Assembly: GCA_046484625.1 (NCBI GenBank)
Contig: JAWOIO010000043.1
Location: forward strand, 1-55,915
DNA: 55,915 nt
Reading direction: 5' to 3'
DNA from: Acidimicrobiia bacterium
Lineage (GTDB): Bacteria; Actinomycetota; Acidimicrobiia; IMCC26256; PALSA-555
Shown: positions 1,715-53,244 of the stretch, piece after piece
Numbering within the stretch: position 1 is the stretch's first letter
Layout: each line of letters opens with the position of its first letter
Made by a program: the position numbers and the translations under genes
Notes under the pieces: generated by a model
Database searches by the model: none
What the model was told of the DNA's origin: nothing
Seen by the model: the letters and a program-made list of their open reading frames with translations, nothing else

Positions 1715-1719
1715 GAATC

Positions 1720-2604
1720 ATGTCGATCTTCGTCGACGAGACCACCAAGGTCGTCTACCAGGGCCTGACCGGGTCGCAGGGACGGTTCTACGGGCTCCTC
1801 AACCAGGAGTACGGCACGCAGGTCGTCGCCGGCACCAACCCGAAGAAGGCGGGCACCGATGTCGAGGGCATTCCGATCTTCGCCAGCGTGAAGGACGCCG
1901 TCGACGCCACGGGCGCAACCGCGTCGTGCGTCTTCATCCCCGCGCCCGGCGTGAAGGCCGCAGTGATCGACGCCGCTGAAGGCGGGGTGGAGTTCATCGT
2001 CGTGATCACCGAAGGGGTGCCGGCCCACGACGAGGCGTGGTTCTACAACACGCTGCGGCGCGACCACCCGGGCGTGCGCCTGCTCGGTCCGAACTGCCCC
2101 GGGATCATCAGCCCGGGGAAGGCCAACATCGGCATCACCGCCGGCCACATCGCCAAGGCGGGTGGCCCGGTCGGCATCGTGAGCCGGTCCGGCACGCTCA
2201 CCTACCAGGCGCTCTACGAGCTGAAGCAGAAGGACATCGGCGTCACGACCTGTGTGGGCATCGGCGGGGACCCCGTCCCCGGGACCAGCTTCATCGACTG
2301 CCTGCAGGCGTTCGAGACCGACCCTGAGACCAAGGCCGTGATGATGATCGGCGAGATCGGCGGCTCGGCCGAGGAAGAGGCGGCCGCGTACATCAAGGCC
2401 GAGATGACCAAGCCGGTCGTCTCCTACATCGCCGGGGTCACGGCCCCTCCGGGCAAGAAGATGGGTCACGCCGGCGCGATCGTCTCGGGTGGCAAGGGCA
2501 CCGCCGCTGCGAAGATGGAGGCACTCGCCGACGCCGGCGTGCAGATCGGGCTCAACCCGACCGAGGCCGGGGAGCTCATGGTCGGGGTCGTCGCCGGGCT
2601 CTGA
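1720..2604 (+). CDS. sucD: succinyl-CoA synthetase alpha subunit
   Basis: The ATG at 1720 lies 5 nt after the sucC stop and is preceded by GGAGGGAAG. The sequence MSIFVDETTKVVYQGLTG...SRSGTLTY...GHAGAI contains the phosphohistidine loop typical of SucD. Confidence 0.97.
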   Translation: MSIFVDETTKVVYQGLTGSQGRFYGLLNQEYGTQVVAGTNPKKAGTDVEGIPIFASVKDAVDATGATASCVFIPAPGVKAAVIDAAEGGVEFIVVITEGVPAHDEAWFYNTLRRDHPGVRLLGPNCPGIISPGKANIGITAGHIAKAGGPVGIVSRSGTLTYQALYELKQKDIGVTTCVGIGGDPVPGTSFIDCLQAFETDPETKAVMMIGEIGGSAEEEAAAYIKAEMTKPVVSYIAGVTAPPGKKMGHAGAIVSGGKGTAAAKMEALADAGVQIGLNPTEAGELMVGVVAGL

Positions 2605-2630
2605 CCCGCGCGTCCTAGGCCCGCGCGTCC

Positions 2631-2636
2631 TAGACT
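2631..2636 (+). promoter_or_regulatory. -10-like box (TAGACT) of a leaderless-type promoter
   Basis: A TANNNT hexamer ends 6 nt before GTG 2643, and there is no Shine-Dalgarno. Confidence 0.45.
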
Positions 2637-2642
2637 CGACTC

Positions 2643-2999
2643 GTGTCCACTCCCCCCACTCCCCCGGCCCCCGAGCCCGGCGTTCCGCCTCCTGCGCCCG
2701 AACCCGGGCCACCGCCACCCCCGCCCGGGGCGTTCGCGACACCGGGAACCGGGCCGGTTGCGCGCACGAACGGGTTCGCGGTCGCGTCGTTGGTGCTCGG
2801 GTTGCTCTTCTGCCTCGTCATCACCGCGGTCCTGGCCGTGATCTTCGGCAACGTCGCACTGGGACGCATCGACGAGTCGAACGGAACCGAGAAGGGTCGA
2901 GGGCTGGCGATCGCCGGGATCGTGCTCGGCTGGATCGGGATCGCTCTGCTGGCGATCGGCAGCCTCGTGTGGCTCGGCTACGGGATCAGCAACTCCTAG
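2643..2999 (+). CDS. small membrane protein with Pro-rich N-terminus and two TM helices (DUF4190-like)
   Basis: 118-aa track ORF with a PPxP-rich head followed by FAVASLVLGLLFCLVITAVLAVIFG and GLAIAGIVLGWIGIALLAIG. GC3 is high. Confidence 0.8.
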   Translation: MSTPPTPPAPEPGVPPPAPEPGPPPPPPGAFATPGTGPVARTNGFAVASLVLGLLFCLVITAVLAVIFGNVALGRIDESNGTEKGRGLAIAGIVLGWIGIALLAIGSLVWLGYGISNS

Positions 3000-4003
3000 C
3001 CCGCCGTTGCCGTCGCGTCACCGTCGACGGGCTCCTCGAGCTTCGGCGCCAGCACGATCCCGAGGGCAACCAGACCCGCAGCCACCAGCGCGGCGAGTCC
3101 GGCGAGTCCCAGGGCGGAGTCTCCGGCGAGATCGCCGATCACGGCGAGCAAGCCGAACACCACGACGATCCCGCCGATCCACACCGATCCGCGTCGCCCC
3201 TCGCCCCGGGCGCCGATCCAGCCGACGAGCGCTCCGGCCGCGGCCGTCAGCAGGCCACCGAGCACCACGCTCTCCTGGCCGCCGAGCGAGGCCGCGCCCA
3301 CGACTGCGAGGAGCGCACCGACCGCAAGGAAGGGTGTGGCCGCGCCGGCCCGGCCCTTCTTGTCGAGGCCTGCTGCCGCGCCGAGGAAGGCGAGGCCGAG
3401 GATCAGTGACACGACGTCGGTGTCGTCGTCGCTGTCGATCGAATCGAAGCCGTTGGACGAGCCACCGTCGCCGAACGGGGTGTCGAACCCGGTCTCCCCA
3501 CTGATCTCGTTCTGGAACGGCGCCACGGCGTCGCCGCCGGCGACCTCGAAGTTGATCCAGGCCGCCAGGAACACCAGCGCGAGACCCAGGAAGATCGCCC
3601 GTCCCGCGGTCCACCCGAGCAGGTAGAGCGCCACGTACACGGCGAGGCAGAGCAGGAGGATCGCACGGACCGATCCGCTCCCACCGCTCTCGCCGTCACC
3701 CAGGAAGGCGAAGAACCAGAGCACCGGGGTGATGGTGGCCAAGGCAGCGACGCACGCGCTCCGAGCCGGGCCCGGGAGTCGCATCCCGATGGCGAACGCG
3801 GCCGCGGCGACGATGAGGCTGGCGAGCACGCCGGGGGCGGTGAGGTCGTCGGATGCCACCTCGGCCGCGAGTGCGATGGCCGCGATGACCAGGAACAGGC
3901 CCGCGCCGGCTGCGAGCACGTGGGCGAACCCGGCGACAGGTCGGCGCTCAGCACGCCAACCCAGCCGCTCGCCGAGTGAGGGCTTGGCTGCTCCGTCAGG
4001 CAC
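2996..4003 (-). CDS. polytopic integral membrane protein, function unknown
   Basis: 335-aa ORF with about 8 hydrophobic segments and an acidic loop (GFDSIDSDDDTD). GGAGG lies 6 nt upstream of GTG 4003. Its stop overlaps the convergent 2643..2999 stop by 4 nt. Confidence 0.7.
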   Translation of the reverse strand: MPDGAAKPSLGERLGWRAERRPVAGFAHVLAAGAGLFLVIAAIALAAEVASDDLTAPGVLASLIVAAAAFAIGMRLPGPARSACVAALATITPVLWFFAFLGDGESGGSGSVRAILLLCLAVYVALYLLGWTAGRAIFLGLALVFLAAWINFEVAGGDAVAPFQNEISGETGFDTPFGDGGSSNGFDSIDSDDDTDVVSLILGLAFLGAAAGLDKKGRAGAATPFLAVGALLAVVGAASLGGQESVVLGGLLTAAAGALVGWIGARGEGRRGSVWIGGIVVVFGLLAVIGDLAGDSALGLAGLAALVAAGLVALGIVLAPKLEEPVDGDATATAG

Positions 4004-4047
4004 GAGGTTCCTCCGGTTCTGTGTGGCTGAAGTAGTGCGGACGTGAA

Positions 4048-4073
4048 CCGGCCCCCGCAGTGACGGGGGCCGG
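4048..4073 (-). terminator. hairpin terminator candidate downstream of 4112..4588
   Basis: Perfect 10-bp stem CCGGCCCCCG / CGGGGGCCGG with a 6-nt loop, about 40 nt after the stop of the minus-strand gene. There is no U-tract. Confidence 0.5.
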
Positions 4074-4111
4074 ACGCAACGATTCGAGCAGTCTGGGCTT
4101 CGCGCCCGGAC

Positions 4112-4588
4112 TCAGGCGGTAGGCGGCGGGGTCGCGCCGCCCCCGGTCTTCTCCTCCTGGAGGCGCATGTAGCCGCCGGCTGCGAGGCCCGCGGTGGCGA
4201 CCAGACCGAGGAACAGTCCGATCTTCCGGCTGATGTCGATGATGTCCTCAGCACCCTCGGGGACGCTGACGCCGGCGATCGTCTTGATGACGACGAACGC
4301 GAAGGCGACGGCACCCATGCCGAGCAGGATCGCACCCCAGGAGCTACCTCCGACGTCGGGGAGCTTCACCTCGAACAGCTTGAGCGCGACGAGGACCACC
4401 ATCGCGATCCCGATCAGCACGGCGAGCCAGGTGAGGGTGAAGTCCCATGCGTTGCCACCGCTGCTACCGGCACCGGGGATGCCCTTGGCGCTGGCTGCGA
4501 ACCAGTCCAGGAACGAGATCGGGATGAACAACAAGATGCCGCTGACCGCGATCACCTTGTCGCTCGTCGAGAGCTTGGTGAGATCCAT
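4112..4588 (-). CDS. small integral membrane protein (4 TM), function unknown
   Basis: 158-aa ORF with GGAGG upstream of ATG 4588. It has hydrophobic helices and a Gly/Pro-rich tail. Confidence 0.75.
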   Translation of the reverse strand: MDLTKLSTSDKVIAVSGILLFIPISFLDWFAASAKGIPGAGSSGGNAWDFTLTWLAVLIGIAMVVLVALKLFEVKLPDVGGSSWGAILLGMGAVAFAFVVIKTIAGVSVPEGAEDIIDISRKIGLFLGLVATAGLAAGGYMRLQEEKTGGGATPPPTA

Positions 4589-9278: not shown

Positions 9279-10127
9279 GTGGAGCCAGAATCTGAGATGT
9301 TGCTCGCCGAGCTGAACGTCCGCCACACGCGTCGGCACATGCCGACCCGGCGCATCGCGTTGGGCGACGTCTACCTCCCCACGAGCGGCCCGGCGTACGG
9401 CGCGGTCCTGCTGGGCGCGGTGGTGTCGGAGTTCGCGCCGGATCTCGACGAAGAGCAGCGCGACTTCCTGCCCCGGCTGCTCGACGACGCCCGGAAGGGC
9501 CTCGCGGTCCCCCGCATCGCCCTGCGGTACCGGCTCCAGACCGACACGCACGGGCTCGATCGCTCCCGGCACCGCATCGTCGGTGAGTCCTTCACCCGGT
9601 CGGGTGCCGAGGTGGGGACGCACACCGATGCACGGGTCGTCCTCGAGATCGACCGGCACGGCCGCCCCGACCCGCAGGTCATCGGCGCGGTGCTCGCGGC
9701 CGCCGCACTCCCCCGCTCGGCCCGGGTCGTTGCCCTGCGCGCGGTCGAGGCGGCGCTCGTCCGGCCGCGCGTCCCGGAGGGCGTGACGATCCGCCGACTC
9801 CTCGACGGCCCCCCCGACCTCCGCCGCTCCCGACCCGGGATGGCCGGCGTCGGCGGCTCCGAGGGCGGACGGATCGACGACGCGTGGCGTGGGATCCCGG
9901 CCGACCGGCGTTGGGCCATGGAGGTCCTCGGCATCGCGGCGAACGGCACCGTCGACCGGGTCGACGTGCAGGCCCGCTTCCGCCGGCTGGCCCGACTTGC
10001 GCACCCGGATCACGGTGGCGCGCGCGACGGTGCGGCCGAACGGCTCGCCCAGCTCGGGGAGGCCAGGGCGATGCTCCTCGCCGACGACGGTCGGCGCGCG
10101 TCCGACGCCGCGGCCCGCACCGGCTGA
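9279..10127 (+). CDS. protein with C-terminal J domain (HPD motif) and an uncharacterised N-terminal region
   Basis: AMEVLGIAANGTVDRVDVQARFRRLARLAHPDHGG resembles J-domain helices I-III with the HPD loop. GC3 is high. The start could instead be ATG 9297. Confidence 0.7.
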   Translation: MEPESEMLLAELNVRHTRRHMPTRRIALGDVYLPTSGPAYGAVLLGAVVSEFAPDLDEEQRDFLPRLLDDARKGLAVPRIALRYRLQTDTHGLDRSRHRIVGESFTRSGAEVGTHTDARVVLEIDRHGRPDPQVIGAVLAAAALPRSARVVALRAVEAALVRPRVPEGVTIRRLLDGPPDLRRSRPGMAGVGGSEGGRIDDAWRGIPADRRWAMEVLGIAANGTVDRVDVQARFRRLARLAHPDHGGARDGAAERLAQLGEARAMLLADDGRRASDAAARTG

Positions 10128-10208
10128 CGGCACCGGCCTCGGGCTCCTCCAGTCGGGGGTCGGGGATCCGCGCCGCGCCGGGCTTCGGGTGCGCCGGGGT
10201 GCGCCCGG

Positions 10209-10214
10209 TAGCCT
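10209..10214 (+). promoter_or_regulatory. -10-like box (TAGCCT) for leaderless mdh
   Basis: TANNNT ends 6 nt before ATG 10221. It is preceded by a 10-bp tandem GGGTGCGCC(G/C) at 10187-10206. Confidence 0.45.
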
Positions 10215-10220
10215 CGCCGC

Positions 10221-11210
10221 ATGGCTCCTTCACCCGTCCACGTCACCGTCACGGGCGCCGCCGGCCAGATCGGGTACGCGCTCGTCCACCGCATCGCGAG
10301 CGGTCAGCTGCTCGGTCCCGACCAGCCGGTCGTCCTGCGTCTGCTCGAGATCGAGCCCGCGCTGCCGTCACTCGACGGTGTGGTCATGGAGCTCGAGGAC
10401 GGTGCCCACCCGCTCCTCGAGGGGGTGGTCGCCACCGCGGACCTGAAGGCCGCGTTCGACGGGACGTCCTGGTGCCTCCTCGTCGGCTCGGTGCCCCGCA
10501 AGGCCGGGATGGAGCGGGGCGATCTCCTCACCGTGAACGGTGGGATCTTCAAGCCGCAGGGCCAGGCGATCAACGCGCACGCCGCCGACGACGTGCGCGT
10601 GCTCGTGGTCGGGAACCCCTGCAACACGAACTGCTTCATCGCCCGTTCGAACGCGCCCGACGTCCCCGCCGATCGTTGGTTCGCGATGACCCGCCTCGAC
10701 GAGAACCGGGCCAAGACCCAACTCGCGATCAAGGCCGGGGTACCGGTGCGCGACGTCACGAACCTTGCGATCTGGGGCAACCACTCGGCGACGCAGTTCC
10801 CCGACTTCGCGAACGCCCGCATCGGCGGCAAGCTCGCGCCCGAGGTGATCGACGACGACGCGTGGCTCCAGGGCCCGTTCCTGGAGACGGTGCAGAAGCG
10901 GGGTGCCGCGGTCATCGAGAAGCGCGGCGCGTCGTCTGCGGCCTCGGCCGCGCACGCGGCGATCGACTCCGTCAACAGCATCTGGCGCCCGACGCCCGAC
11001 GGCGACTGGCACTCACTCGCCGTGGCCGGCAGCGGCGAGTACGGCGTGCCCGAGGGACTGCAGTTCGGGTACCCGGTGCGCAGCGACGGCTCGACCTGGT
11101 CGGTCGTCGAGGGCATCGAGCACGGCGAGTTCGCCCAGGAGCGGATCCGGATCACCACCGAGGAGCTGCTCGAGGAGCGGGCCGAGGTCACCGAGCTCGG
11201 ACTCGTCTGA
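10221..11210 (+). CDS. mdh: malate dehydrogenase
   Basis: 329 aa. [14 protein letters not shown]..., VVGNPCNTN and [12 protein letters not shown] are typical of cytosolic-type MDH. Confidence 0.95.
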
Positions 11211-11218
11211 GCGACCCC

Positions 11219-11716
11219 ATGTTGCGCTGGTGGTCGCACCCCACACCGATCGGTGAGCTGGGGGTGACCGTCGGTGACCACGGCGTGTGCTCGATCTCCC
11301 TCCCCGGTGCCGATCCGGTCCCACCGGACGGTGCGATCGAGGAGCGGGTCGACGTACTCGCGCGTCAGCTCGACGAGCACTTCGAGGGGGTCCGCCGTGC
11401 GTTCGACGTGGAAGTCGACCTCTCGGGCGTGAGCACGGAGTTCCAGCGCGCGGTCCTCCTCGCGTTGCGCCGGGAGGTGCCGTGGGGAACGACCGTCACC
11501 TATCGCGAGCTGGCCGAGATCGCCGGTCGACCGAAGGCGGCGCGGGCGGTCGGCACCACGATGGCGTCGAACCCCGTGCCCCTGGTGGTGCCGTGCCACC
11601 GGGTGCTCGCCTCGTCCGGCAACGGGGGCGTGCGCCTGGGCGGCTATGGCGGGGCCGACGGGCGACCCGACCTCAAGCGCGCGCTGCTGGCGATCGAAGG
11701 TGTGACGATCGCCTGA
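11219..11716 (+). CDS. ogt: methylated-DNA-protein-cysteine methyltransferase
   Basis: ATG lies 8 nt after the mdh stop. It has the active-site PCHRV motif and a TYRELAEIAGRPKAARAVG helix-turn-helix. It is the tail of track ORF 9884..11716. Confidence 0.9.
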   Translation: MLRWWSHPTPIGELGVTVGDHGVCSISLPGADPVPPDGAIEERVDVLARQLDEHFEGVRRAFDVEVDLSGVSTEFQRAVLLALRREVPWGTTVTYRELAEIAGRPKAARAVGTTMASNPVPLVVPCHRVLASSGNGGVRLGGYGGADGRPDLKRALLAIEGVTIA

Positions 11717-11719
11717 CGA

Positions 11720-12502
11720 TCAGCCCTTGGCGGTGCCTTCCTTGGCCTCGCCGGCCGCTTCCTCGACGGGCGGCGGTGGCGTCGACAGGCCGAGCTCGGA
11801 GCGCAGCTCGCTGAGGCGGGCCTGGGCCTCGGCGCTGGCCTGGGCCTGCTCGACCTCGAGCATCTTCACGTCGACGGACGCGCCCGTGAGGTCGGTCGTC
11901 GCCTGCGCCTTCGAGAGCCGCTTCTCGATCTTGTCGCGCACCTGCTCGAACGTCGGCACGTCGTCGCCGACGGTCTCGCTGAGCTGCGTCATCGCCTTGT
12001 TCATCTGCTCCTGCATCTTCGCCTGGTCGAGCTGGCTCAGGAGCTTCTCGCGCTCGGCGAGCTTCTTCTGGAGGGCCGCCGAGTTCTGGGTGACGGCCTG
12101 CTTGGCCTTCTCCGCCGCCTGCGTCGAGTCGAGGAGGCTCTTCTTCATCTGATCGATCTGGGTCTCGAGGCTGATGAGCTTGTTCGCGAACGCCTCGGCG
12201 GCCTCGCCCATCGACTGCGCCTTCTCGGCATTCCCCGCGCGCGTCTCCTGGTCGGAGAGCAGCAGTGCCTGGCGCGCCGACGCGTTCGCCTTCTCGTATT
12301 CCTCGATCGCGCGGTCGAGCTTGAGCTGCGTCTGCTTCTGGTTCGCGATCACGTTCGCGGCCTGCTCGGTGAGCTTGCGGTGCTGATCCCGCGCCTCGGT
12401 GATCGCCTGCTCCAGCTGCACCTTCGGGTCCGCCGACTCCTCGAGCTTCAACCCGAGCTTCGCCCCCAGGTACCTCCACCACTTCTTGATCGCTTTGAAC
12501 AT
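11720..12502 (-). CDS. pspA: PspA/IM30 family membrane-stress protein
   Basis: 260 aa and all-helical. MFKAIKKWWRYLGAKL...PKVQLEQAITEARDQ... is a typical PspA N-terminus and coiled coil. Confidence 0.92.
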   Translation of the reverse strand: MFKAIKKWWRYLGAKLGLKLEESADPKVQLEQAITEARDQHRKLTEQAANVIANQKQTQLKLDRAIEEYEKANASARQALLLSDQETRAGNAEKAQSMGEAAEAFANKLISLETQIDQMKKSLLDSTQAAEKAKQAVTQNSAALQKKLAEREKLLSQLDQAKMQEQMNKAMTQLSETVGDDVPTFEQVRDKIEKRLSKAQATTDLTGASVDVKMLEVEQAQASAEAQARLSELRSELGLSTPPPPVEEAAGEAKEGTAKG

Positions 12503-12508
12503 GCCCGT

Positions 12509-12514
12509 ACCCTA
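12509..12514 (-). promoter_or_regulatory. -10-like box (TAGGGT) for leaderless pspA
   Basis: TANNNT on the minus strand ends 6 nt before ATG 12502. No Shine-Dalgarno lies adjacent. Confidence 0.4.
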
Positions 12515-12708
12515 CCCAAGGGGTCTGGTCGAATACGAGGGCGGGACGGCCGCGGATCGCCACGAACACGCCCGACCTCCCGCTTCCTCCAAGGGCGGCA
12601 TCGAAGGAGCGGGCCCGACCCCGAGCATCGCCATGGCGACGCCCGAAGTGGTCCAGGTGGCCCCCGGTCCGCCGAAGAGCGACTGGGGTGCGCGGAGTCG
12701 ATGAGGTG

Positions 12709-12795
12709 GGCCGGGGGCCACCCCCACCCGTGATCGCGGCCGGGGGCCACCCCCACCCGTGATCGCGGCCGGGGGCCACGCACACCCGCAACGAG
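12709..12795. repeat. 29-bp tandem repeat, 2 perfect copies + 1 diverged
   Basis: GGCCGGGGGCCACCCCCACCCGTGATCGC occurs at 12709-12737 and 12738-12766. A third, diverged copy spans 12767-12795. The array abuts the stop of 12800..13561 and lies about 200 nt upstream of pspA. Confidence 0.85.
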
Positions 12796-12799
12796 GTGA

Positions 12800-13561
12800 T
12801 CAGCCGGAGGCGGTCGCCGCCGTCCCGCCCGCCTCTTCTAGGCCGACCCGCAGGCTCTCCATCTCCCCGACGAGCGCCTCGACGTCCCCGCCGAGCCCGC
12901 CGAGCTGGGCCACGTCCTCGGCCTGGATCGACAGCTCGACGGCGCGGGCCACCGCCTCGTCGAGGCGTGCGTCGAGGAGGCGGAGCCGGTCCTTGGCGTC
13001 GGTCGCGACCGCGGTCAGTCGGTCGGCCGAGTCGACCTGCGACTGGAGCGCAGCGACGGTGGCGTCAGCGGACGGGCCGGGGCTCGCGTTCGCGGCCTGC
13101 TGTGCCGCCTCGAGCTCGCGCCGGGCCGAGGGCGAGTCGAGGTTGGCGATGGCATCGACGAGCGCGTCGCCGCGCCGGGCGACGCGCCACACCTCGCCGA
13201 CACCGGCGTCGATGCGTTCGCCGATCTCGACGAGCCGATCGCGCAGCGGACCTGAGTTCGCGGAGGCGACGGCCTTGCGGTACCGGCGCTGGGCGTCGAG
13301 GGCCTCGCGCACGAACGCCCGCCACGGGTCCGAGATGCTCATCGGGTCGATCCGGCCCCCGCGGGCGCCACGGGGGAGCAGGCTCACGACACGGGCGAGC
13401 CCGACGAGCGCCCCGACCCCGAGCGCGACGAGGATCGGGAGTCCACCGAGGATCGCAGCAGCCGCTCCACCACCGGCGAGGAGGATCGCCGACGGCGCCA
13501 TGACGGCGTCGGCGGTCTGTCGGTTCTTCCACCGCTCGGGCAGCCCCTCGATCACACCCAC
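12800..13561 (-). CDS. 2-TM membrane protein with long cytoplasmic coiled-coil, PspA-associated by position
   Basis: Hydrophobic hairpin (APSAILLAGGGAAAAILGGLPILVALGVGALVGLA) followed by Ala/Arg/Asp-rich helices. I prefer GTG 13561 because GGGAG lies 6 nt upstream. The track start at 13612 falls inside the palindromic element. ATG 13501 is also possible. Confidence 0.7.
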   Translation of the reverse strand: MGVIEGLPERWKNRQTADAVMAPSAILLAGGGAAAAILGGLPILVALGVGALVGLARVVSLLPRGARGGRIDPMSISDPWRAFVREALDAQRRYRKAVASANSGPLRDRLVEIGERIDAGVGEVWRVARRGDALVDAIANLDSPSARRELEAAQQAANASPGPSADATVAALQSQVDSADRLTAVATDAKDRLRLLDARLDEAVARAVELSIQAEDVAQLGGLGGDVEALVGEMESLRVGLEEAGGTAATASG

Positions 13562-13576
13562 CGAACGCTCCCGCTC

Positions 13577-13631
13577 GGGCTTCTCGGCACGTTCAGTGTT
13601 GCCCTGCAACAACCAGCGTGCCGAGAACGGG
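13577..13631 (-). repeat. conserved palindromic intergenic element, copy 1 (consensus orientation on minus strand)
   Basis: GGGCTTCTCGGCACG-TTCAGT-GTTGC-CCT-GCAAC-AACCAG-CGTGCCGAGAACGGG. It begins about 20 nt after the stop of 13650..15461. Confidence 0.85.
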
Positions 13632-13649
13632 AGAGGTGGGTGGGATCCA

Positions 13650-15461
13650 CTAGAAGTTGCTCACCACCGCGTTGAACACGTTCACGATGGTGGCGGGGTC
13701 GACGGCGCTGTACGCAGCGGCGTTCGTGGCCTCGGCGATGCGCTTGAGGGTCGACTCGTCGGCGTCGCTGCCATACGCGATCGTGAAGATCCGCACGGGG
13801 CTCGTGGACTCGCCCTCGGTCGTGGTGCGCAGCGCCGAGAGCAACCCGGCGAGGTCCTCGTTCCGCGGGTCCTCGTTGCGTCCGTCGGTGAGGAGCACCA
13901 CCGCGTTGATGCGGGTCGGGTCGTAACCCTCCCGCATGAACGTGTAGGAGTCCTCGGCCGCCGTGTACAGCGGCGTCCCCTGCGTCGGCTTGAGGCGTTC
14001 GATCTCACTCTCGAGGTCGGGCCTGTTCGCGGAGATCGGCCCGATCGGGACGATGTCGCGGTAGTCGGTGGGCTCACGTTCACTGATCTCGGTGGAGAAG
14101 ATCCGCAGGCCTACCTCGTCCTCGGGTTGGAACTGGTCGAGCGCGGCGATCGCGGCCCGCTTCGCGAGGTCGAGCTTCGTGGCGCCGGTCCTCGGGTCGG
14201 CCTCGTCGCCCATCGACCCCGACACGTCGACCACGAGGAGCACCCGCGCCTTCTTGCGCACCTGGTTCCACTGGTCGATCACACCGGCGAGGACTGCCGG
14301 CTTGGGCACCTCGAGCGTCGTCTGGGGCTGGGAGGGGTCGAGGCCGTTCGCCGCGGTGATCGGCTTGCCGATCGACACCGCGGGGTTGCCCGGTCGGAAG
14401 CCGAACTCGAGCACCCTTCGCTGGTTCTTCTGGCTGGTCACGAACTCGGTGAACGCCCGGGCCGCGGTGGCCTCGGCGTTCGACACCCACGGCGCGTCGA
14501 GGACGATGAGTGGGTTGTCGCTGAAGAGCGTCCCCTCCTTCGGGTAGATCGCGACGAGCGGGACGCGCGGCTTGCGGGGCTGCTCGCCCGGGTCGAGGAT
14601 GCCGTCGGGGTTGCCGCGGTTGTAGTCGACGACCGACTTCTCCTCGACGGCGACGGCGGACGCGTACCCGTAGGGGTCGCCGCGGCGGTCGGCGCGGTAG
14701 AGGTTGTTGAGGAACGTGAGGGTCGTGTCGCCGTAGTGCACGACGGCCGACTCGACACCCCGCGCGAAGGCGTCGACCTCGGGTCGGGCGAGGTCCTCGA
14801 GCGTGAGGTCCGATGTCTTGCCCGTGGCCGCGTAGTACTGCGCGACCGTCTGTGCGAGCCCGCTGGTCGAGAAGTTGGGGTTGGTCTTCCCGAGGCGGAA
14901 CGGGCCCCACTCGGGGTGACCCTTCCCGGCCCATCCGGCTGGGTCCTGGGAGAGGGCGAGGATGTCCGAGAAGCCGATCGGCGTGGCCGGGTAGCCGAGT
15001 GCGTCGGCCATGGGCTGGGGCATCGCGATCACGAGCGGGGTGAGCATGAACGACGTGCCGGGGGTGGTGACGTACGCGTCCTTGCCGTCCTCGGCCCGAC
15101 GTTGGTCGAGCACCGCGCCCCAGGTGCTCGCCGCCGGTGACCAGATGACGGGCCGGGGCCCGTTCTTCGCCGGCTTCGGCCAGTCGGCCGCGAGCAGCGT
15201 CGCCGCCGCGCCCGACGACGCCTTCGTGACCCGCACGTCGACGCAGCGGTTGCCGACCTTGGCGGCGGAGGACCGACCGAAGCGCTTGGCGAGGTCGGTG
15301 AGCAGCTCGAGCTTCTCTGGTGACGACGCGATGTCGACCGTGACGCACGACTGCGCCGCCGCGGGCAGGGCTCCGGTGCCGAGGCCACCGAGCACGGTTC
15401 CCACGAGGAGGAGGCTCGCGGTCGCGCGACGGCCACGGCGTGAAGGGGCGCGCAGGCTCAT
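13650..15461 (-). CDS. secreted solute-binding-fold + von Willebrand factor A (vWA) domain protein
   Basis: 603 aa with signal peptide SRRGRRATASLLLVG...AAAQ. The N-terminal ~400 aa look periplasmic-binding-protein-like. The C-terminal vWA has an intact MIDAS (VVDVSGSM...GTPLY...LLTDGRNED). Confidence 0.9.
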   Translation of the reverse strand: MSLRAPSRRGRRATASLLLVGTVLGGLGTGALPAAAQSCVTVDIASSPEKLELLTDLAKRFGRSSAAKVGNRCVDVRVTKASSGAAATLLAADWPKPAKNGPRPVIWSPAASTWGAVLDQRRAEDGKDAYVTTPGTSFMLTPLVIAMPQPMADALGYPATPIGFSDILALSQDPAGWAGKGHPEWGPFRLGKTNPNFSTSGLAQTVAQYYAATGKTSDLTLEDLARPEVDAFARGVESAVVHYGDTTLTFLNNLYRADRRGDPYGYASAVAVEEKSVVDYNRGNPDGILDPGEQPRKPRVPLVAIYPKEGTLFSDNPLIVLDAPWVSNAEATAARAFTEFVTSQKNQRRVLEFGFRPGNPAVSIGKPITAANGLDPSQPQTTLEVPKPAVLAGVIDQWNQVRKKARVLLVVDVSGSMGDEADPRTGATKLDLAKRAAIAALDQFQPEDEVGLRIFSTEISEREPTDYRDIVPIGPISANRPDLESEIERLKPTQGTPLYTAAEDSYTFMREGYDPTRINAVVLLTDGRNEDPRNEDLAGLLSALRTTTEGESTSPVRIFTIAYGSDADESTLKRIAEATNAAAYSAVDPATIVNVFNAVVSNF

Positions 15462-16534
15462 CCGGTGATCTCCCGCCAGGTCTCGAGGAGTGCGACGAGC
15501 GAGCCGGCGTCGGGGAGGTTCGAGGTATCGGGAAGGTTCGGTGCAGAGGGGATTCCCCGGGCTCGGTCCTCACCGGCGACCCGCCACCCGGCGCGGGCGA
15601 GCGCGCCGCGCCCGTCGTCGCCGGTGACCGTCTCGCGGAGGGCGTCGGCACGGCGTGCGCCGGCCAACGGTGCGTACACGACGTCGAGGGTGGCCACAGG
15701 GGCAGGGTAGAGCAGGCGCACCTGGTCCCGACGGTCGCCGGCCGCCCGGGCGAGGAGGGGACCGGCCTCGGCCTCGTGGGTCCCGACCGCGTCGTAGGCC
15801 GCCGGACCGGCGGTGAGCATGCGCTCGAAGGGCGACGCGGCGGCCGTGAGCCCGCCGGGCACCGCCCGCTCGAGCCGCCCGAACCACTCGAGGAACGCGT
15901 CGTCGGCGTAGTCGTCGCGTGACGGGTCCGGGCGCCCCAGGAACTGCGTGGCGGCCTGCCCGATCACGGCGAGCCCGTCGCCGTGATCGGCCGGGTCGGC
16001 GTGCCCGGGCTTCACCGCGCCCCACCGCACGTCGCCACCGATCGAGTCCCACCGCGTCCCGGCGACGTCGCCGAGGCAGCGCCAGTCGACCTCGCCGCAC
16101 GACTGCGCGAGCACCGACGCCCGGTCGTCCCACACCGCGAGCACGAGGGGGGACCGGCCGATGGGATCGGTGGCCACGCCGACGGCGGGACGCAGCGCGG
16201 CGCGCTCGCGGGCGTCCCGCACGATCTGTGCGTCGCGCTCGAAGGTGAGCCACCCGTCGTAGCCGAGGCCGGCGAGGTCGGCGTCGGCGACCCCGCTGAG
16301 CGTCGCGACGGTGTCGCCCTCCGACGCGATCGTCACCCGGACGTCGGTCCGGGAGGCCAGGTCGTCGCAGGCGACTGCGAGCTCGCGGGCGCAGAGCAGG
16401 CGCAGGGGCGCGTCGGACGATGATCCCGTCCCGCCACTCCCATCGTCGTCGAGCACGGCTCGGATGCCGATGGCGGCCCCGACCAAGGCGACCGCGATGA
16501 CGAGCGCCGCGAACCGGCGCGCGGCGAGGGTCAT
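15458..16534 (-). CDS. membrane-anchored solute-binding-fold protein
   Basis: 358 aa with an N-terminal anchor (FAALVIAVALVGAAIGI). It has 4-nt overlaps with both neighbouring genes. Confidence 0.8.
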   Translation of the reverse strand: MTLAARRFAALVIAVALVGAAIGIRAVLDDDGSGGTGSSSDAPLRLLCARELAVACDDLASRTDVRVTIASEGDTVATLSGVADADLAGLGYDGWLTFERDAQIVRDARERAALRPAVGVATDPIGRSPLVLAVWDDRASVLAQSCGEVDWRCLGDVAGTRWDSIGGDVRWGAVKPGHADPADHGDGLAVIGQAATQFLGRPDPSRDDYADDAFLEWFGRLERAVPGGLTAAASPFERMLTAGPAAYDAVGTHEAEAGPLLARAAGDRRDQVRLLYPAPVATLDVVYAPLAGARRADALRETVTGDDGRGALARAGWRVAGEDRARGIPSAPNLPDTSNLPDAGSLVALLETWREITG

Positions 16535-17961
16535 GGCGTGGGCTCCGGGACGTCGCCGGCCACGAAGGTCACGAGGGTGTCGTGGGACGGCTCGGCGTCA
16601 CCCACGATGCGGGTCGCCTGACGTGCCACGCAGGCCTCGAACAGGTTGCGGGCGAGGCGGCCGTTGCCGAACGTGGGTCCTCGGGTGGAAGCGGCGAAGT
16701 GCGCGAGCACCGCCTCCCTGGCGCCGGGATCGAGGCGGTAGTGGTGCTGTTCCCCGATGGACTCGAAGATCGCGAGGAGCTCGTCGTCGGTGTAGTCGGG
16801 GAAGTCGACCGTCTTGGAGAAGCGCGATCGCAGACCCGGGTTCGAGTCGAGGAACGTGCGCATCGGCGCGGGGTAGCCGGCCACGATGACGATGAGGTCG
16901 TCGCGGTCGTCCTCCATCCGCTTGAGCAAGGTGGCGACGGCTTCGGCGCCGAAGTCCTGCTCGCTCTCGGTGACGAGCGCGTAGGCCTCGTCGAGGAAGA
17001 GGATCCCGCCCAGCGCGTCGTCGCACGCCTTGTGCACCTTGGGCGCGGTCTGGCCGACGTAGCCGGCGACGAGCCCCGATCGGTCGGTCTCGACGAGGTG
17101 ACCGCGCGAGACGACGCCGAGCACGCGGTAGATGCGCGCGAGCAGGCGGGCGACGGTCGTCTTCCCCGTGCCCGGGTTGCCCACGAAGACGAGGTGCTGG
17201 CTGCGGTCGACGATGGGCAGGTCGCGGTCCTTGCGGATCCCCTCGACCCGCACGAGGTTGGTGAGCAGACGGACCTCGGTCTTCACGGCTTCGAGGCCGA
17301 TGAGGCCGTCGAGCTCGAGGAGCAGCGACTCGAGGGTCTCCTCAGGCTGCTCGGGGGTGGTGGCATCGGGCGCGCGCCGGCGGGATCCGTCGCCGCGCGG
17401 GATGCCGGCGGCGTCGATCCGGCGGAGGAGCATGGCGCGCAGCGTGTCGACCGCGAGCAGCTCCTCGCGGGTGGGGGTCGTGTCGATCGCGCAGACCGCG
17501 TGTGCGACGCGCAGCGCGCCGTCGTAGTACCGCCACGCCTCGGAGGAACGCGCCTGCTCGTCGGCGGTGACGATCGTCTCGAACAGTGGGGACGGGGTCA
17601 CGGGGAAGGCGCGGTGCTGGCGGATCGCCGGGCTCCCACGCAGATGGGCGGGTGAGGTGTTCCGTAGCGACTCGAACCACGGCCCGAGCGCCTGGGCGAA
17701 GGCCGCGAGCTCGGCGTCGGAGGGGTGGCCGTCGGCCGCGATCACCGACGCCGCGATCGCCTGCGCCTCGAGCGCGGCGTCGCGCTCCAGGGCACCCGGC
17801 TCGGGCTGCTTCCCGGCCCGCCGGGCCAGTCCCTCGAGGATCTCGGTCAGCTCGACGACGAGGGCCTGGACGGGCTCGTCGAGGAGCCCGGGCATGCCGG
17901 GGCCAGCGGGTCCGGGTGGTGTGCCGTCTCGGCCGGTGGCGCCCATCGCTCCCTGCTCCAT
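16531..17961 (-). CDS. CbxX/SpoVK-type AAA+ ATPase with TerB-like N-terminal region
   Basis: Walker A GNPGTGKTT, Walker B ILFLDEAY, and GLIGLEAVK upstream of the P-loop. I prefer ATG 17961 (or 17946) because the track start at 18282 would overlap the hydrolase gene. Confidence 0.9.
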   Translation of the reverse strand: MEQGAMGATGRDGTPPGPAGPGMPGLLDEPVQALVVELTEILEGLARRAGKQPEPGALERDAALEAQAIAASVIAADGHPSDAELAAFAQALGPWFESLRNTSPAHLRGSPAIRQHRAFPVTPSPLFETIVTADEQARSSEAWRYYDGALRVAHAVCAIDTTPTREELLAVDTLRAMLLRRIDAAGIPRGDGSRRRAPDATTPEQPEETLESLLLELDGLIGLEAVKTEVRLLTNLVRVEGIRKDRDLPIVDRSQHLVFVGNPGTGKTTVARLLARIYRVLGVVSRGHLVETDRSGLVAGYVGQTAPKVHKACDDALGGILFLDEAYALVTESEQDFGAEAVATLLKRMEDDRDDLIVIVAGYPAPMRTFLDSNPGLRSRFSKTVDFPDYTDDELLAIFESIGEQHHYRLDPGAREAVLAHFAASTRGPTFGNGRLARNLFEACVARQATRIVGDAEPSHDTLVTFVAGDVPEPTP

Positions 17962-18031: not shown

Positions 18032-18976
18032 TCAGACGCGGCGGGCGACGAGTGCCGCGTCGAGCCAGCCGGTGGTGACGTCCAGGAAGGTCGCAGGATC
18101 CTCGAGCTGAGGTGCATGGCCGAGGTCGTCGAGGACCCGGAGATGGACCTGGTCGTGGCGCGCGGCGGCGGCGTGGGCGAGCTCGACCGCCACCAGCCGG
18201 TCGCGTGCCCCGTGGACGAGCAGGGTCGGGCGTTCGGTCGCGGCCACACCGAGGTCGGTGTCCGCGCCGTCGGTGAGCTCACGGAGCAGCGTCCGGGCCG
18301 CGTCGGCGTAGGCCTGGGGAGCCTCGGGGTAGGCGAACCGCTCGGCGGCGAGGTGGATCAGCCTTCGCCGCAGCACGGGGTCGAGTCGACTCGGGTCGTG
18401 CAGGCTCATCGCGAGGCTGAGGTCGACGAGCCGCGCGGGTCCGAGCGCCCGGGCACGCGTCGCCACCACCCGGTGCCCGACCGACGGGACCATCACGGGG
18501 ACGAAGCGTGCGATCCGTCGCCAGTCGCGGGACTTCACGCCGCGCCACTGCAGCGCCGGGTTCACGAGGACGAGCGCGTCGACGAGGTCGGGTCGCCGGG
18601 CGGCGACGCCCGCGGCGAGCACACCGCCCATCGAGTTCCCGAAGATCGCGGCGGGGCCGTGCTGCTCCAGGAACGACACGAGCAGGTCGCGGTTGCTCTC
18701 GATGGTGGCAAGCCGGGTCGTCGCCCGGGTACGCCCGTGCCCCGCGAGGTCGAGCGCCGTGACCGTCGCGCCCACCCGGTCGGCCAGTCCCTGCGCGAGC
18801 GCGAACCACGACAGCGTGTTGGCGCCCAGACCGTGGACGAGCAGGATGCGGCGATCACCGGCCCCGGACGGTCCCGGCCCTCCCGCGCGCGGCAGCCACT
18901 CGACCGCGTGGACGCGGAGGCCGTCGACCTCGATGCGATGGGCGCGTCCGGGGGCGGGCGCGAGGTTCGTCGGCAC
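18032..18976 (-). CDS. alpha/beta hydrolase
   Basis: 314 aa with LLVHGLGAN, the nucleophile elbow GNSMGG, and a C-terminal GHAPQLE. Confidence 0.9.
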   Translation of the reverse strand: MPTNLAPAPGRAHRIEVDGLRVHAVEWLPRAGGPGPSGAGDRRILLVHGLGANTLSWFALAQGLADRVGATVTALDLAGHGRTRATTRLATIESNRDLLVSFLEQHGPAAIFGNSMGGVLAAGVAARRPDLVDALVLVNPALQWRGVKSRDWRRIARFVPVMVPSVGHRVVATRARALGPARLVDLSLAMSLHDPSRLDPVLRRRLIHLAAERFAYPEAPQAYADAARTLLRELTDGADTDLGVAATERPTLLVHGARDRLVAVELAHAAAARHDQVHLRVLDDLGHAPQLEDPATFLDVTTGWLDAALVARRV

Positions 18977-19732: not shown

Positions 19733-21049
19733 TCAGCGCTCCAGCGTGACCCCGAAACGATCCGTGTAGTCGCGCAGCTGTTCGCGCAGGACGGCCGCGT
19801 CGAGGTCGAAGTCGCCGGCCAGGTCGTAGCGAACACCGCCGTGACGGCCACGCGGGTGCGCGGCGAGGAAGTCGACCATCGCGGCGCGAGCCTCGTCGTC
19901 GAACGGCTGACCAGCCACCGCGTAGATCCGCTCCACCATCGCGAGGTCGTCGGCCATGAACTCATCGAACGCGACGTCGATGGTCCGGTCCATGGGGAGG
20001 AGCGCGTGGTCGCGCATCCCCGCCCGCAGCATCTCCTCGATGCGGTCGGCCCAGTAGTGGCCGATCTTCACGGGGTCCGGGGACGCGGTGGAGAAGCGGG
20101 CCGTGTACGCGATCATCGTCGCGTTGGACGCGATCACCGACACCGGGTCGCGGTGGGTGAACACGAACGTGGCGTCTGGGAACACGTCGAGCAGCACGGG
20201 GATCTGCTCGAGGTGCTGCGGCGACTTCAACACCCATCTGGTCGGATCGGGGCGGTCACCGTCGCGCAGCCATTGGCAGCACTGGAGCACTCGCACGAGA
20301 TACTCGTACGCCGGGGTCTGGTCGTGCCCGACGTACCACTCCCTCCAGGAGGGGAGCACCGCCGAGGTCTCGAACAGCATCGTCGAGCCGGCGATCGCGA
20401 GGAGCTGGATCTCCTCGTGCACGTGATCGACGGTCATCTCGTGCATGCGCTTGAAGAGCGGCATCGCGTCGTTGAGGAAGTCGAGGCCGACCGCGCAGCG
20501 TTCGAAGCGGGGATCCGGCGCGCCCGCCGCGACCGCGGCCTGCTCGTCGTCCGACAGGACCGGCTCGAGGCTCTCCCAGTACCGGAGTGAGCGCAGCGCC
20601 GGGTCCTCGGCCACGAGGTTGTGCAGGTGCGTGGTCCCGGTGCGGGGCTGCCCGACGATCACGATCGGCGCCGCGATGGGAGTGTCGAGGATCTCCGGGT
20701 GCGCGCCGATCAGATGCTCCACCCGGAGACGGTTGCGCATGTGCCCGACCATCTGGCTGTGCACGCTGACGCGTCCGAATGCCGACAGCCCACCCTCGGT
20801 GTCGAGGGCCCCCAGCACGACGCCCATCGGCTCCCGGAACCAGTCGTCGCCCAAGTCGTCGAGTCCTGTCTCGGTCCGCGCGAGCGCGAGCACGGCATCG
20901 AGTGAGAAGGAGAGCCCGGCGGCCATGGGCTCCACGGCCCGCAGCATCTCGGCGACGGGCTCGGTGAACCGGGGCGCGGCGAGATCGTCGATCGCCACCG
21001 ACGGGGGCCGACGTTCGCCGGCCGGGGGGGAGGCGCCAGGTGTGCTCAT
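19733..21049 (-). CDS. sulfotransferase family protein
   Basis: 438 aa with a PAPS-binding-type loop (IVGQPRTGTTHLHNL) and an RSLRYWE region. Confidence 0.85.
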   Translation of the reverse strand: MSTPGASPPAGERRPPSVAIDDLAAPRFTEPVAEMLRAVEPMAAGLSFSLDAVLALARTETGLDDLGDDWFREPMGVVLGALDTEGGLSAFGRVSVHSQMVGHMRNRLRVEHLIGAHPEILDTPIAAPIVIVGQPRTGTTHLHNLVAEDPALRSLRYWESLEPVLSDDEQAAVAAGAPDPRFERCAVGLDFLNDAMPLFKRMHEMTVDHVHEEIQLLAIAGSTMLFETSAVLPSWREWYVGHDQTPAYEYLVRVLQCCQWLRDGDRPDPTRWVLKSPQHLEQIPVLLDVFPDATFVFTHRDPVSVIASNATMIAYTARFSTASPDPVKIGHYWADRIEEMLRAGMRDHALLPMDRTIDVAFDEFMADDLAMVERIYAVAGQPFDDEARAAMVDFLAAHPRGRHGGVRYDLAGDFDLDAAVLREQLRDYTDRFGVTLER

Positions 21050-49318: not shown

Positions 49319-49543
49319 GTCGCCGATCCCGTGCCCGGGTGTGGCGAGTGCCGCGCGTGCCGGAAGGGACGCCCGGCCGTGTGCCTCCGGCGGAGTCCTC
49401 CCGACTACCTGTCGTTCCGTGGTGCCTTCTGCCAGTTCGTCGTGGTGCCTGCCGACCGACTCGTGCGGATCCCCGACTCGCTGTCGCTGCGGGGCGCGGC
49501 CCTCACCGAGCCGACCTCCATCGCCATCCACATCGTCGAGCTC
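49319..49543 (+). pseudogene. internal remnant of a zinc-type medium-chain alcohol/polyol dehydrogenase
   Basis: VADPVPGCGECRACRKGRPAVC...GAFCQFVVVPADRLVRIPDSLSLRGAALTEPTSIAIH matches the structural-zinc Cys cluster and the following strand of MDR enzymes. The N-terminal ~80 aa and the whole Rossmann domain are absent. Confidence 0.55.
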
Positions 49544-53101: not shown

Positions 53102-53244
53102 GGCATCAGCTTCCGGAGCGGTTCGAGCACCTCGTCGGATACCCGGCCGAAGCGATCGGCCGCGCACGGGGACGGAGCGGACGGGGAGTGCATGAGGATG
53201 AGAGACTGGCCCACGTGGAGCGAGCCGTCGACTCGACCGCGCAC
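53098..53244 (-). CDS. possible small ORF (48 codons from GTG; frame open for 79 codons) coupled to ABC exporter
   Basis: Not in the track because it is under 60 aa from ATG/GTG/TTG. By my hand count about 70 of 79 third positions are G/C. Its TGA overlaps the exporter GTG (GTGA). No homology recognised. Confidence 0.35.
   Translation of the reverse strand: MRGRVDGSLHVGQSLILMHSPSAPSPCAADRFGRVSDEVLEPLRKLMP

Follow-up and report, generated by a model that had tools for sequence, protein, structure and literature searches.

Contig JAWOIO010000043.1 of an Acidimicrobiia bacterium (assembly GCA_046484625.1), analyzed over its full length of 55,915 nucleotides and referred to below as the window, carries five co-directional minus-strand genes that encode, in the order of transcription, a CbbX-like AAA+ ATPase, two proteins of the solute-binding protein (SBP) fold, of which the second is fused to a von Willebrand factor A (vWA) domain (SBP2 and SBP-vWA, respectively), a helical protein with two predicted transmembrane (TM) segments (the 2-TM protein), and PspA. 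These genes probably make up a form of the PspA envelope-stress system (phage-shock, ESCRT-III-like) that is particular to the lineage and combines PspA with a new membrane adaptor, an ATPase dedicated to remodeling, and, optionally, an extracytoplasmic sensor cassette; we assign this reading a probability of about 55%. Comparison of gene neighborhoods supports the view that the five genes are functionally linked and are not chance neighbors. The PspA system is of a known type; the adaptor family (compared with mycobacterial PspM by description only), the N-terminal domain of the ATPase, and the surface cassette are new. No characterized system of this composition was found in text searches or in the main text of two surveys of Psp systems (PMC11237479 and PMC9239133), as had been stated in an earlier note on this DNA made from its sequence. 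That note proposed a PspA-linked envelope module; its view that the five genes are linked has held up, as has the theme of envelope stress, whereas its arguments from TerB, TerY, twin-arginine (Tat) export, and AAA+/vWA pairing have not.

The five open reading frames (ORFs) lie where the earlier note had placed them, with the 4-nt overlaps between the AAA+ and SBP2 genes (16531 to 16534) and between the SBP2 and SBP-vWA genes (15458 to 15461), and both the palindrome and the 29-bp repeat that it mentioned are present. The G+C content of the window is ∼71%, and the nearest relatives of its proteins come from uncultured Acidimicrobiia (Actinomycetota). The relevant features, all on the minus strand, are as follows:

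11720 to 12502: pspA, encoding the 260-aa PspA/IM30 effector (Pfam PspA_IM30)
12503 to 12799: intergenic region upstream of pspA, 297 bp, containing the 29-bp tandem repeat
12800 to 13561: gene for the 2-TM protein, 253 aa, with a predicted 2-TM hairpin and a predicted cytoplasmic helical bundle of ∼175 aa
13581 to 13627: stem-loop between the SBP-vWA and 2-TM genes, with 22-nt arms and a 3-nt loop, lacking a U-tract
13650 to 15461: gene for SBP-vWA, 603 aa, an exported SBP fold plus a vWA domain with an intact metal ion-dependent adhesion site (MIDAS)
15458 to 16534: gene for SBP2, 358 aa, an SBP-fold paralogue with an N-terminal signal anchor
16531 to 17961: gene for the AAA+ ATPase of the SpoVK/CbbX/EccA clade, with an all-helical N-domain at approximately residues 25 to 195
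18032 to 18976: gene for an alpha/beta hydrolase (Abhydrolase_1, 3e-23), 70 bp upstream of the AAA+ gene and of uncertain membership in the module
49542 to 53167: two adjacent genes for ABC_membrane plus ABC_tran half-transporters of the heterodimeric exporter type, ∼32 kb from the cluster

A genome scan with an SBP-vWA alignment detected 575 relatives, and the counts given here come from the best 80 loci, all from Acidimicrobiia and with 61 to 93% identity in SBP-vWA, in which the presence and adjacency of the other genes were scored by tblastn with the window proteins. Of the 71 loci that extend far enough to include SBP2, 63 have it next to SBP-vWA; for the 2-TM gene, the corresponding count is 59 of 69, and 65 have it somewhere in the locus. 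Among the 50 loci with room on both sides, the AAA+ gene is found upstream in 31, and pspA directly follows the 2-TM gene in 27. The presence of the AAA+ gene tracks the adjacency of pspA, with both features in 26 loci, the AAA+ gene alone in 5, pspA adjacency alone in 1, and neither in 18 (Fisher p = 3e-8). The gene order is conserved across the 80 loci, and the full set from AAA+ to pspA, whose co-occurrence in related genomes the earlier note had made a condition of its proposal, is found in 26 of these 50 loci. The five-gene form is also present in two sublineages whose AAA+ proteins are only 47 to 52% identical to that of the window. In the loci that lack the AAA+ gene, the upstream genes vary.

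Some of these loci contain other envelope-related or AAA+ genes. In some Acidimicrobiales, a gene for a MurJ/MviN-like (lipid II flippase-like) protein is inserted between the 2-TM gene and pspA (L053, positions 12453 to 14036; L063, 12567 to 14150; and P0374), which makes another link to the cell envelope. A pair of genes for a MoxR-type AAA+ protein and a CoxE-type vWA protein is located on the opposite strand in L025 (5032 to 7209), L028 (1754 to 3677), L068 (5312 to 7790), and L089 (2521 to 5027); the MoxR-type assignment is confirmed by Pfam only in L089, comes from the N termini of the ORFs in L025, and is not clear in L028 and L068. This pair lies a few kilobases from the cluster in lineages without the CbbX-like ATPase (a proA-like gene adjoins it in L025, L068, and L089), and its presence may be a matter of coincidental synteny.

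As the best 80 loci of the genome scan are all from Acidimicrobiia, the evidence for the breadth of the module beyond that class comes from a small number of loci on plasmids and in metagenomes, the latter detected in a scan with a four-sequence alignment. The following arrangements were observed:

2TM–PspA pair without SBP or AAA+ genes: L089, L090, L094, L098, L112, and L115, with gaps of 10 to 46 bp in L089, L090, L094, and L098
AAA+–2TM–PspA without SBP genes: L095 and L097
SBP-vWA–2TM–PspA: L102 and L109
Five-gene form: L106, L107, and L113, the last of which ends at a contig end before any pspA
SBP2–SBP-vWA–PspA next to genes for an FHA protein, a kinase–2TM fusion, and Band_7: L091

In L097, the AAA+ and 2-TM genes overlap by 4 nt, stop codon on start codon, and the whole ATPase, N-domain included, shares 48% identity with its counterpart in the window. 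A helical protein with two TM segments is encoded directly after SBP-vWA in Miltoncostaea (Thermoleophilia) and on a Streptomyces plasmid; hhalign with a diverse profile of the 2-TM family matched the Thermoleophilia neighbor with Prob 95.7 and E 9e-9 over 226 columns and the Streptomyces neighbor with Prob 86.7 and E 4e-6, and the pairing of SBP-vWA with the 2-TM protein is thereby found in three actinobacterial classes. SBP-vWA is also followed by a helical protein with two TM segments in Variovorax, with TelA encoded just upstream and a flotillin nearby, but this neighbor shows no detectable homology to the 2-TM family (E 0.1). Thiodictyon encodes another SBP after its SBP-vWA. The recurrence of these subcombinations points to a modular architecture, [AAA+]–[SBP2–SBP-vWA]–2TM–PspA, in which the first two blocks are optional. 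The earlier note had treated the 2-TM protein as a minor part; it appears instead to be the hub, with the SBP cassette and the ATPase as optional additions to a 2TM–PspA core.

The 2-TM protein has not been assigned to any Pfam or NCBIfam family. Its family comprises 958 homologues, none with a functional annotation, and a profile search of 1.84 billion representative proteins yielded 994 clusters at 50% identity (E values up to 1e-3), almost all of them of ∼250 aa. The GTG start codon at position 13561 is backed by the alignment, in which 29 homologues start with MG-V(I/V)D. The protein contains a Gly/Ala-rich hydrophobic stretch of ∼41 residues that is divided by a conserved GGLP motif and flanked at both ends by basic residues, a pattern that fits a hairpin. 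In the AlphaFold 2 (AF2) model, residues 70 to 252 form a helical bundle with pLDDT values of about 85 to 90. Foldseek comparison of this bundle with the PDB returned only generic or designed helical proteins and no significant fold match, with the TorS sensor at E 0.05 to 0.07 and BAR/eisosome proteins at E 0.17 or weaker, and tblastn searches of plasmids with the 2-TM protein and with the N-domain of the ATPase found nothing.

In longer relatives, the 2-TM module is fused to a Ser/Thr kinase, to a SARP-type regulator (winged helix-turn-helix plus BTAD), or to TerD. The last of these fusions, in which TerD is joined to the 2-TM module by a Pro-rich linker, was found on two independent contigs (P0318 and P0337), in each case just after a second TerD gene. 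Fusion to cytoplasmic signaling or stress domains argues for a cytoplasmic N terminus of the 2-TM protein. The alternative of an extracellular bundle, with the kinase and SARP fusions working as classic receptors, was rejected because the hydrophobic stretch has basic residues at either end (e.g., ARRRQRP after it in P0345). Identity with TelA/XpaC was also rejected, as there is no Pfam match and hhalign against the Variovorax TelA gave an E value of 0.25. Taken together, the kinase, SARP, and TerD fusions suggest a reusable membrane-stress signaling module, and we propose that the 2-TM family, which has neither a Pfam family nor a name, is a previously undescribed membrane adaptor of PspA whose relation to PspM is judged by architecture and gene order only. 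In L091 (positions 1226 to 4511), genes for a Band_7 protein, an FHA protein, and a Ser/Thr kinase–2TM fusion adjoin PspA–SBP-vWA–SBP2, which suggests phosphorylation-based control of the PspA system in that lineage.

The PspA/Vipp1 proteins now count as bacterial ESCRT-III, a view echoed in PMC11237479. To our knowledge, control of their assembly and disassembly outside proteobacteria is unclear, and we know of no general bacterial equivalent of Vps4. The product of the window pspA gene matches the PspA_IM30 family (PF04012) over residues 6 to 237 with an E value of 1.1e-27 and a score of 97.6 bits (cutoff, 33.9), which places it firmly in that family. In most relatives, pspA is located directly downstream of the 2-TM gene; it is also in constant synteny with mdh and icd.

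The ATPase contains the Pfam domains AAA and AAA_lid_6 and matches the NCBIfam models SpoVK (8e-77), EccA (2e-73), and CbbX (9e-70), with scores below the respective equivalog cutoffs (257.8 versus 422.95, 248.2 versus 466.65, and 235.2 versus 459.25 bits) and an N-domain unlike that of any of the three. Its best relative of solved structure in the PDB is CbbX (1e-56), with EccA1 at 6e-49. The signatures described for the SpoVK–EccA-like clade, namely, the Walker A and B motifs, a GY in sensor-1, an Asn located four residues ahead of the first Arg finger, and an Arg retained in sensor-2 (PMC11513918), are all found in the translation: GNPGTGKT and ILFLDEAY, VIVAGY, NPGLRSRF, and GNGRLARN, respectively; GNPGTGKTT and ILFLDEAY had been noticed earlier. 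Members of this clade are specialized chaperones, each with a single dedicated client that is recruited via the variable N-domain, and SpoVK and EccA work on enzymes of envelope biosynthesis (PMC11513918).

The N-domain (approximately residues 25 to 195) is conserved in 31 orthologues, including the AADGHPSDAEL and AIDTTPTREEL motifs, and is all helical in an AF2 model with a pLDDT of 86.5; a homology search with it retrieved only 33 proteins, many of them shorter than the full-length ATPase, so that the alignment behind this model is shallow. The N-domain had been described as TerB-like, and this claim found no support. No TerB match was obtained with Pfam at E values up to 10 for the window protein and 12 orthologues; a PDB profile search and Foldseek were negative as well, the best Foldseek hit having an E value of 0.87, with only generic or designed helical proteins among the matches; and hhalign against an alignment of verified TerB genes gave E 0.2 and Prob 0.3% over 31 columns, with the reservation that the profiles are shallow and very remote homology might be missed. 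With these tests negative, all that remains of the TerB-like reading is a short motif of the form helix–D–x5–E–helix. The domain is new, lineage specific, and all helical, with no detectable relative. The protein could start at any of three Met codons (17961, 17946, and 17895), and the part shared among orthologues starts at LLDEPV, near residue 25; the ORF is open up to position 18282, overlapping the hydrolase gene. The idea that the ATPase and the vWA protein form an AAA+/vWA working pair was not borne out either: the ATPase is cytoplasmic and of the CbbX type (not MoxR/chelatase) and the vWA protein is exported, which puts the two on opposite sides of the membrane.

In SBP-vWA, Pfam identifies SBP_bac_11 (1e-13; 51.8 bits versus a cutoff of 25) and VWA (2e-10), establishing the binding-protein fold; SBP_bac_8 is also among the Pfam matches of the binding-fold proteins. 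The protein has 6,121 homologues at E ≤ 1e-10. The vWA domain, whose nearest relatives in the PDB are BatB-type vWA domains, has the intact MIDAS that had been noted from the sequence, with D412, S414, S416, T496, and D526 invariant in 24 homologues, whereas no SBP of solved structure was detectable with the SBP-vWA family profile. SBP2 reached SBP_bac_11 only below threshold (E 0.0019), but a local hhalign comparison aligned it with the SBP half of SBP-vWA over 238 columns (Prob 97.7, E 1.5e-12), which identifies SBP2, as judged by this profile alignment, as a paralogue of that half. The N terminus of SBP2 is a hydrophobic anchor that looks uncleaved, and we read the protein as membrane anchored and extracytoplasmic. 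A lipobox is present in most of the 76 SBP-vWA orthologues, and the window's subclade has a Sec-type signal peptide ending in AAAQ-SC; nearly every orthologue has either a signal peptide or a lipobox, which argues that the vWA protein is exported. The twin-Arg-like SRRGRR string reported earlier is indeed there, but SRRGRRATAS is a poor match to the S/T-R-R-x-F-L-K consensus and the RR pair is absent from most of the 76 orthologues, so that Tat export is not supported. Two invariant SBP-vWA motifs, SSPEK (residues 45 to 50) and KTNPNFSTSG (residues 192 to 200), encoded within positions 14862 to 15329, suggest a putative pocket of the oxyanion type; they resemble the loops, rich in Ser and Thr, with which binding proteins of the phosphate and phosphonate types hold an oxyanion. 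For these abundant proteins (>6,000 homologues), no published function was found, and the literature search did not find the NCBI product name "substrate-binding and VWA" in use; their link to the module provides a first hypothesis.

In the mechanism that we propose, the core would consist of PspA and the 2-TM protein, the latter comprising a hairpin with both termini in the cytoplasm and then a four-helix bundle. The hairpin might read the state of the membrane or contact the TM anchor of SBP2, whose TM helix would offer the simplest route to it, and the cytoplasmic bundle could be a docking or regulatory platform for PspA. Because members of the ATPase clade recruit one client via the N-domain, and given the gene neighborhood, the N-domain would most likely recognize PspA or the adaptor bundle, and the ATPase may remodel or disassemble PspA assemblies, resembling in function, but not by homology, the action of Vps4 on ESCRT-III. 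SBP2 and SBP-vWA would be an optional cassette, probably a sensor or tether for some envelope ligand, that feeds the adaptor. Associations of PspA with AAA+ proteins are taken as a hint of ATP-dependent membrane remodeling by Ravi et al. 2024 (PMC11237479). A more specific version, in which the CbbX-like ATPase is the functional counterpart of Vps4, recruited by the 2-TM adaptor to disassemble or recycle PspA polymers at damaged membranes and gated from outside by the SBP–vWA pair in the five-gene form, is tentative and, in our judgment, rather unlikely to hold in full. If it were true, it would amount to a complete outside-in, ATP-driven repair circuit of the ESCRT-III type in bacteria that evolved independently of the archaeal and eukaryotic one. 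The module supplies candidates for the control of PspA polymers, namely, a large unnamed adaptor family and a dedicated ATPase whose translation is coupled, in some lineages, to that of the adaptor.

One close parallel among known systems is the mycobacterial ClgR–PspA–PspM–PspN system (Rv2745c to Rv2742c), in which PspM (Rv2743c) resembles the 2-TM protein in its architecture, with two TM helices and a length of about 250 to 270 aa, and in its location next to PspA. The gene order is reversed there, as the 2-TM gene of the window lies upstream of pspA; neither ClgR nor PspN was seen beside the window cluster, which in turn has the additional AAA+ and SBP/vWA genes; and PspM is reported to be restricted to mycobacteria and corynebacteria. 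In other phyla, the role of membrane partner of PspA is played by PspB/C, LiaI, or PspM (PMC11237479). The ATPase shares with SpoVK, CbbX, and EccA the AAA+ core and lid, the clade signatures, and a variable N-domain presumed to recruit one client, but it is found without a RuBisCO, type VII secretion, or sporulation context and has the 2-TM protein and PspA as its partners. The likeness to Vps4–ESCRT-III lies in an AAA+ protein being encoded beside a polymer-forming member of the ESCRT-III superfamily, PspA. The ATPase differs from both Vps4 and the double-AAA+ protein of Ravi et al. 2024 in that it has a single AAA+ domain, belongs to a different, CbbX-like clade, and has no recognizable MIT domain (the sole match, to Spastin MIT, had an E value of 2.9 over 64 columns), and it does not qualify as Vps4-like by sequence. 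In the operons that the same survey describes (PMC11237479), PspA is found with a double-AAA+ protein, and the solute-binding partner is the binding protein PBPB–OmpA with an ABC transporter, versus SBP–vWA here. Contexts with vWA, SBP–vWA, TerD, TelA, or FHA are not mentioned in the main text of PMC11237479 or PMC9239133.

The resemblance to the Ter, TelA, and XpaC proteins consists of membrane-proximal helical proteins and vWA proteins acting under envelope stress, the TerD fusions of 2-TM relatives, and TelA next to the Variovorax SBP-vWA; XpaC–TelA has been implicated in daptomycin resistance (PMC6811118). The window cluster, in contrast, has no TerB, TerC, TerD, or TelA homologue, and its 2-TM protein has no Pfam match to XpaC/TelA. 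Binding-fold proteins that lack a transporter and work with a membrane partner are known from TorT–TorS and LuxP–LuxQ, and the 2-TM family has kinase and DNA-binding fusions; here, however, the bundle is predicted to be cytoplasmic and not periplasmic, there is no histidine kinase, and the similarity to the TorS sensor (E 0.05, TM 0.2) is not significant. A search with the PADLOC defense models gave only weak generic P-loop matches for the ATPase (IetA, 2e-7), a marginal coiled-coil match of pspA to JetC (E 8e-4), and none for the 2-TM protein, SBP2, or SBP-vWA, with no match to a defense system.

Several observations weigh against a PspA-based envelope-stress module of five parts. The Fisher test that associates the AAA+ gene with pspA adjacency ignores shared ancestry, and in ∼40% of the Acidimicrobiia loci the AAA+ gene is missing and pspA is 1 to 4 kb away or beyond the 10-kb flank. 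The gene content, the domain identities, the conservation and modularity of the arrangements, the fusions, and signs of expression in relatives are observations; the topology, the ligand, the client on which the ATPase acts, and all contacts between the proteins are inferred, the contacts from gene neighborhood. The TM region of the AF2 model of the 2-TM protein has low confidence (pLDDT of <50), which leaves the positive-inside rule and the fusions as the basis for the hairpin topology. The Foldseek search matched the N-domain of the ATPase neither to MIT nor to any known PspA-binding fold, and the C termini of PspA are alike in loci with and without the ATPase, with no distinguishing tail. 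Finally, the five genes may form two or three transcription units in the window, given the 297 bp, including a repeat specific to this strain, that lie between the 2-TM gene and pspA and the stable stem-loop between the SBP-vWA and 2-TM genes.

In many relatives, the gap between the 2-TM gene and pspA is only 15 to 45 bp, and the repeat adds to its length in the window. It occupies positions 12709 to 12788, directly after the stop codon of the 2-TM gene, and has 2.8 copies (Tandem Repeats Finder score, 146), a perfect duplication plus a degenerate third copy. As no other occurrence was found in the window or in the 91 related loci compared, the repeat appears to be a recent strain-specific duplication. 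Each 29-bp unit can fold into a short GC hairpin, no better than shuffled sequences do (z = −1.5). The stem-loop at 13581 to 13627 folds at −36.5 kcal/mol (z = −3.25; 1 of 200 shuffles was equally stable) and gave no match in a terminator scan; its stem is retained with substitutions in L001 and L010 and absent from L002. Metatranscriptome contigs with 90 to 99% identity cover pspA and the 2-TM, SBP-vWA, and AAA+ genes, and one contig of 398 nt spans the AAA+/SBP2 junction, with a 14-nt insertion at window position 16530 in place of the overlap, indicating that a short spacer replaces the 4-nt overlap in that related strain. These contigs are weak evidence that relatives express the genes and cotranscribe the AAA+/SBP2 junction, since they come from related strains only and carry-over of DNA is possible.

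Another way to see the cluster is as two unrelated neighboring units, with SBP2 and SBP-vWA (perhaps together with the 2-TM protein) serving in surface binding or adhesion and PspA, possibly with the ATPase, in a separate housekeeping stress function held in place by synteny. The SBP cassette is missing from many 2TM–PspA and AAA+–2TM–PspA loci, the Streptomyces and Miltoncostaea SBP-vWA–2TM pairs have neither PspA nor the ATPase nearby, the synteny of pspA with mdh and icd is constant, and in the window the stem-loop and the 297-bp gap stand between the units. Nevertheless, the 2-TM gene bridges both sets, as a tight partner of SBP-vWA in three classes of actinobacteria and of PspA in loci without an SBP; in L091, SBP2–SBP-vWA directly abuts PspA while the 2-TM module, fused to a kinase, is 1.4 kb away; and the AAA+ gene, upstream in both cases, has its 4-nt overlap with SBP2 in the window and with the 2-TM gene in L097. 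We regard two independent units as unlikely. That the link to PspA is incidental and the ATPase serves another client, such as the alpha/beta hydrolase whose gene lies 70 bp upstream or a cell wall enzyme, in the way SpoVK acts on MurG, seems less probable still. It would agree with the envelope-biosynthesis clients of SpoVK and EccA (PMC11513918), the MurJ-like gene that L053 and L063 have between the 2-TM gene and pspA, and the conserved hydrolase–AAA+ adjacency in the window's subclade. This adjacency is, however, confined to that subclade (AAA+ identity of at least 61%) and absent from the five-gene loci whose AAA+ proteins are 47 to 52% identical, and the ATPase keeps its N-domain and its place beside the 2-TM and PspA genes in L095 and L097, where the sequence upstream of the AAA+ gene is short or ended by the contig end.

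Two further explanations draw on likenesses of single components. A Ter-type system for tellurite, metal, or phage stress, with a TerB-like N terminus, a TerY-like vWA protein, and a TerB/TerC/TerD-like membrane complex, is quite improbable. The helix–D(G)xxxxxE–helix motif does occur twice in the N-domain of the ATPase, the 2-TM–TerD fusions of P0318 and P0337 lie beside a second TerD gene, and the Variovorax SBP-vWA is next to TelA and near a flotillin; yet homology to TerB is negative by Pfam, the PDB profile search, Foldseek, and hhalign, the 2-TM neighbor in Variovorax is not detectably a member of the family (E 0.1), and the vWA protein of the window is exported. Neither Pfam nor NCBIfam assigned TerB, TerC, TerD, or TelA to any of the five cluster proteins and three flanking ones, and none is annotated beside SBP-vWA in L081 to L083, the 80 genome loci not having been screened for Ter genes. 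As for SBP2 and SBP-vWA being ordinary solute receptors of an ABC importer encoded elsewhere, SBP_bac_11 and SBP_bac_8 are importer receptor families and the visible DNA is limited to 56 kb. Against this, the window has no importer permease or ATPase, its only ABC genes being the exporter half-transporters (the earlier note had seen none accompanying either binding-fold gene); no importer was found beside the SBP genes in L016, L025, L028, L039, L048, L053, L063, L068, L081 to L083, L085, and L091, as judged from gene tables, Pfam-annotated calls, or ORF lists; L028 has only an inserted exporter-type ABC transporter; and in L090, which has no SBP genes, an unrelated PstS-type importer lies 3 kb from the 2-TM gene. 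Fusion to vWA is not a feature of importers, nor is a constant association with the 2-TM protein; no solved SBP is detectable with the family profile, and we consider this explanation very improbable.

On either side of the cluster, the window carries genes of other functions. A gene for an MGMT/Ogt-like protein with the PCHRV active-site motif (11219 to 11716, plus strand) is convergent with pspA and ends 4 nt from the pspA stop codon; it lies inside a long spurious ORF (9884 to 11716). Upstream of the AAA+ gene, the alpha/beta hydrolase gene is accompanied by a sulfotransferase gene (19733 to 21049, minus strand), an order kept in the window's own subclade only.

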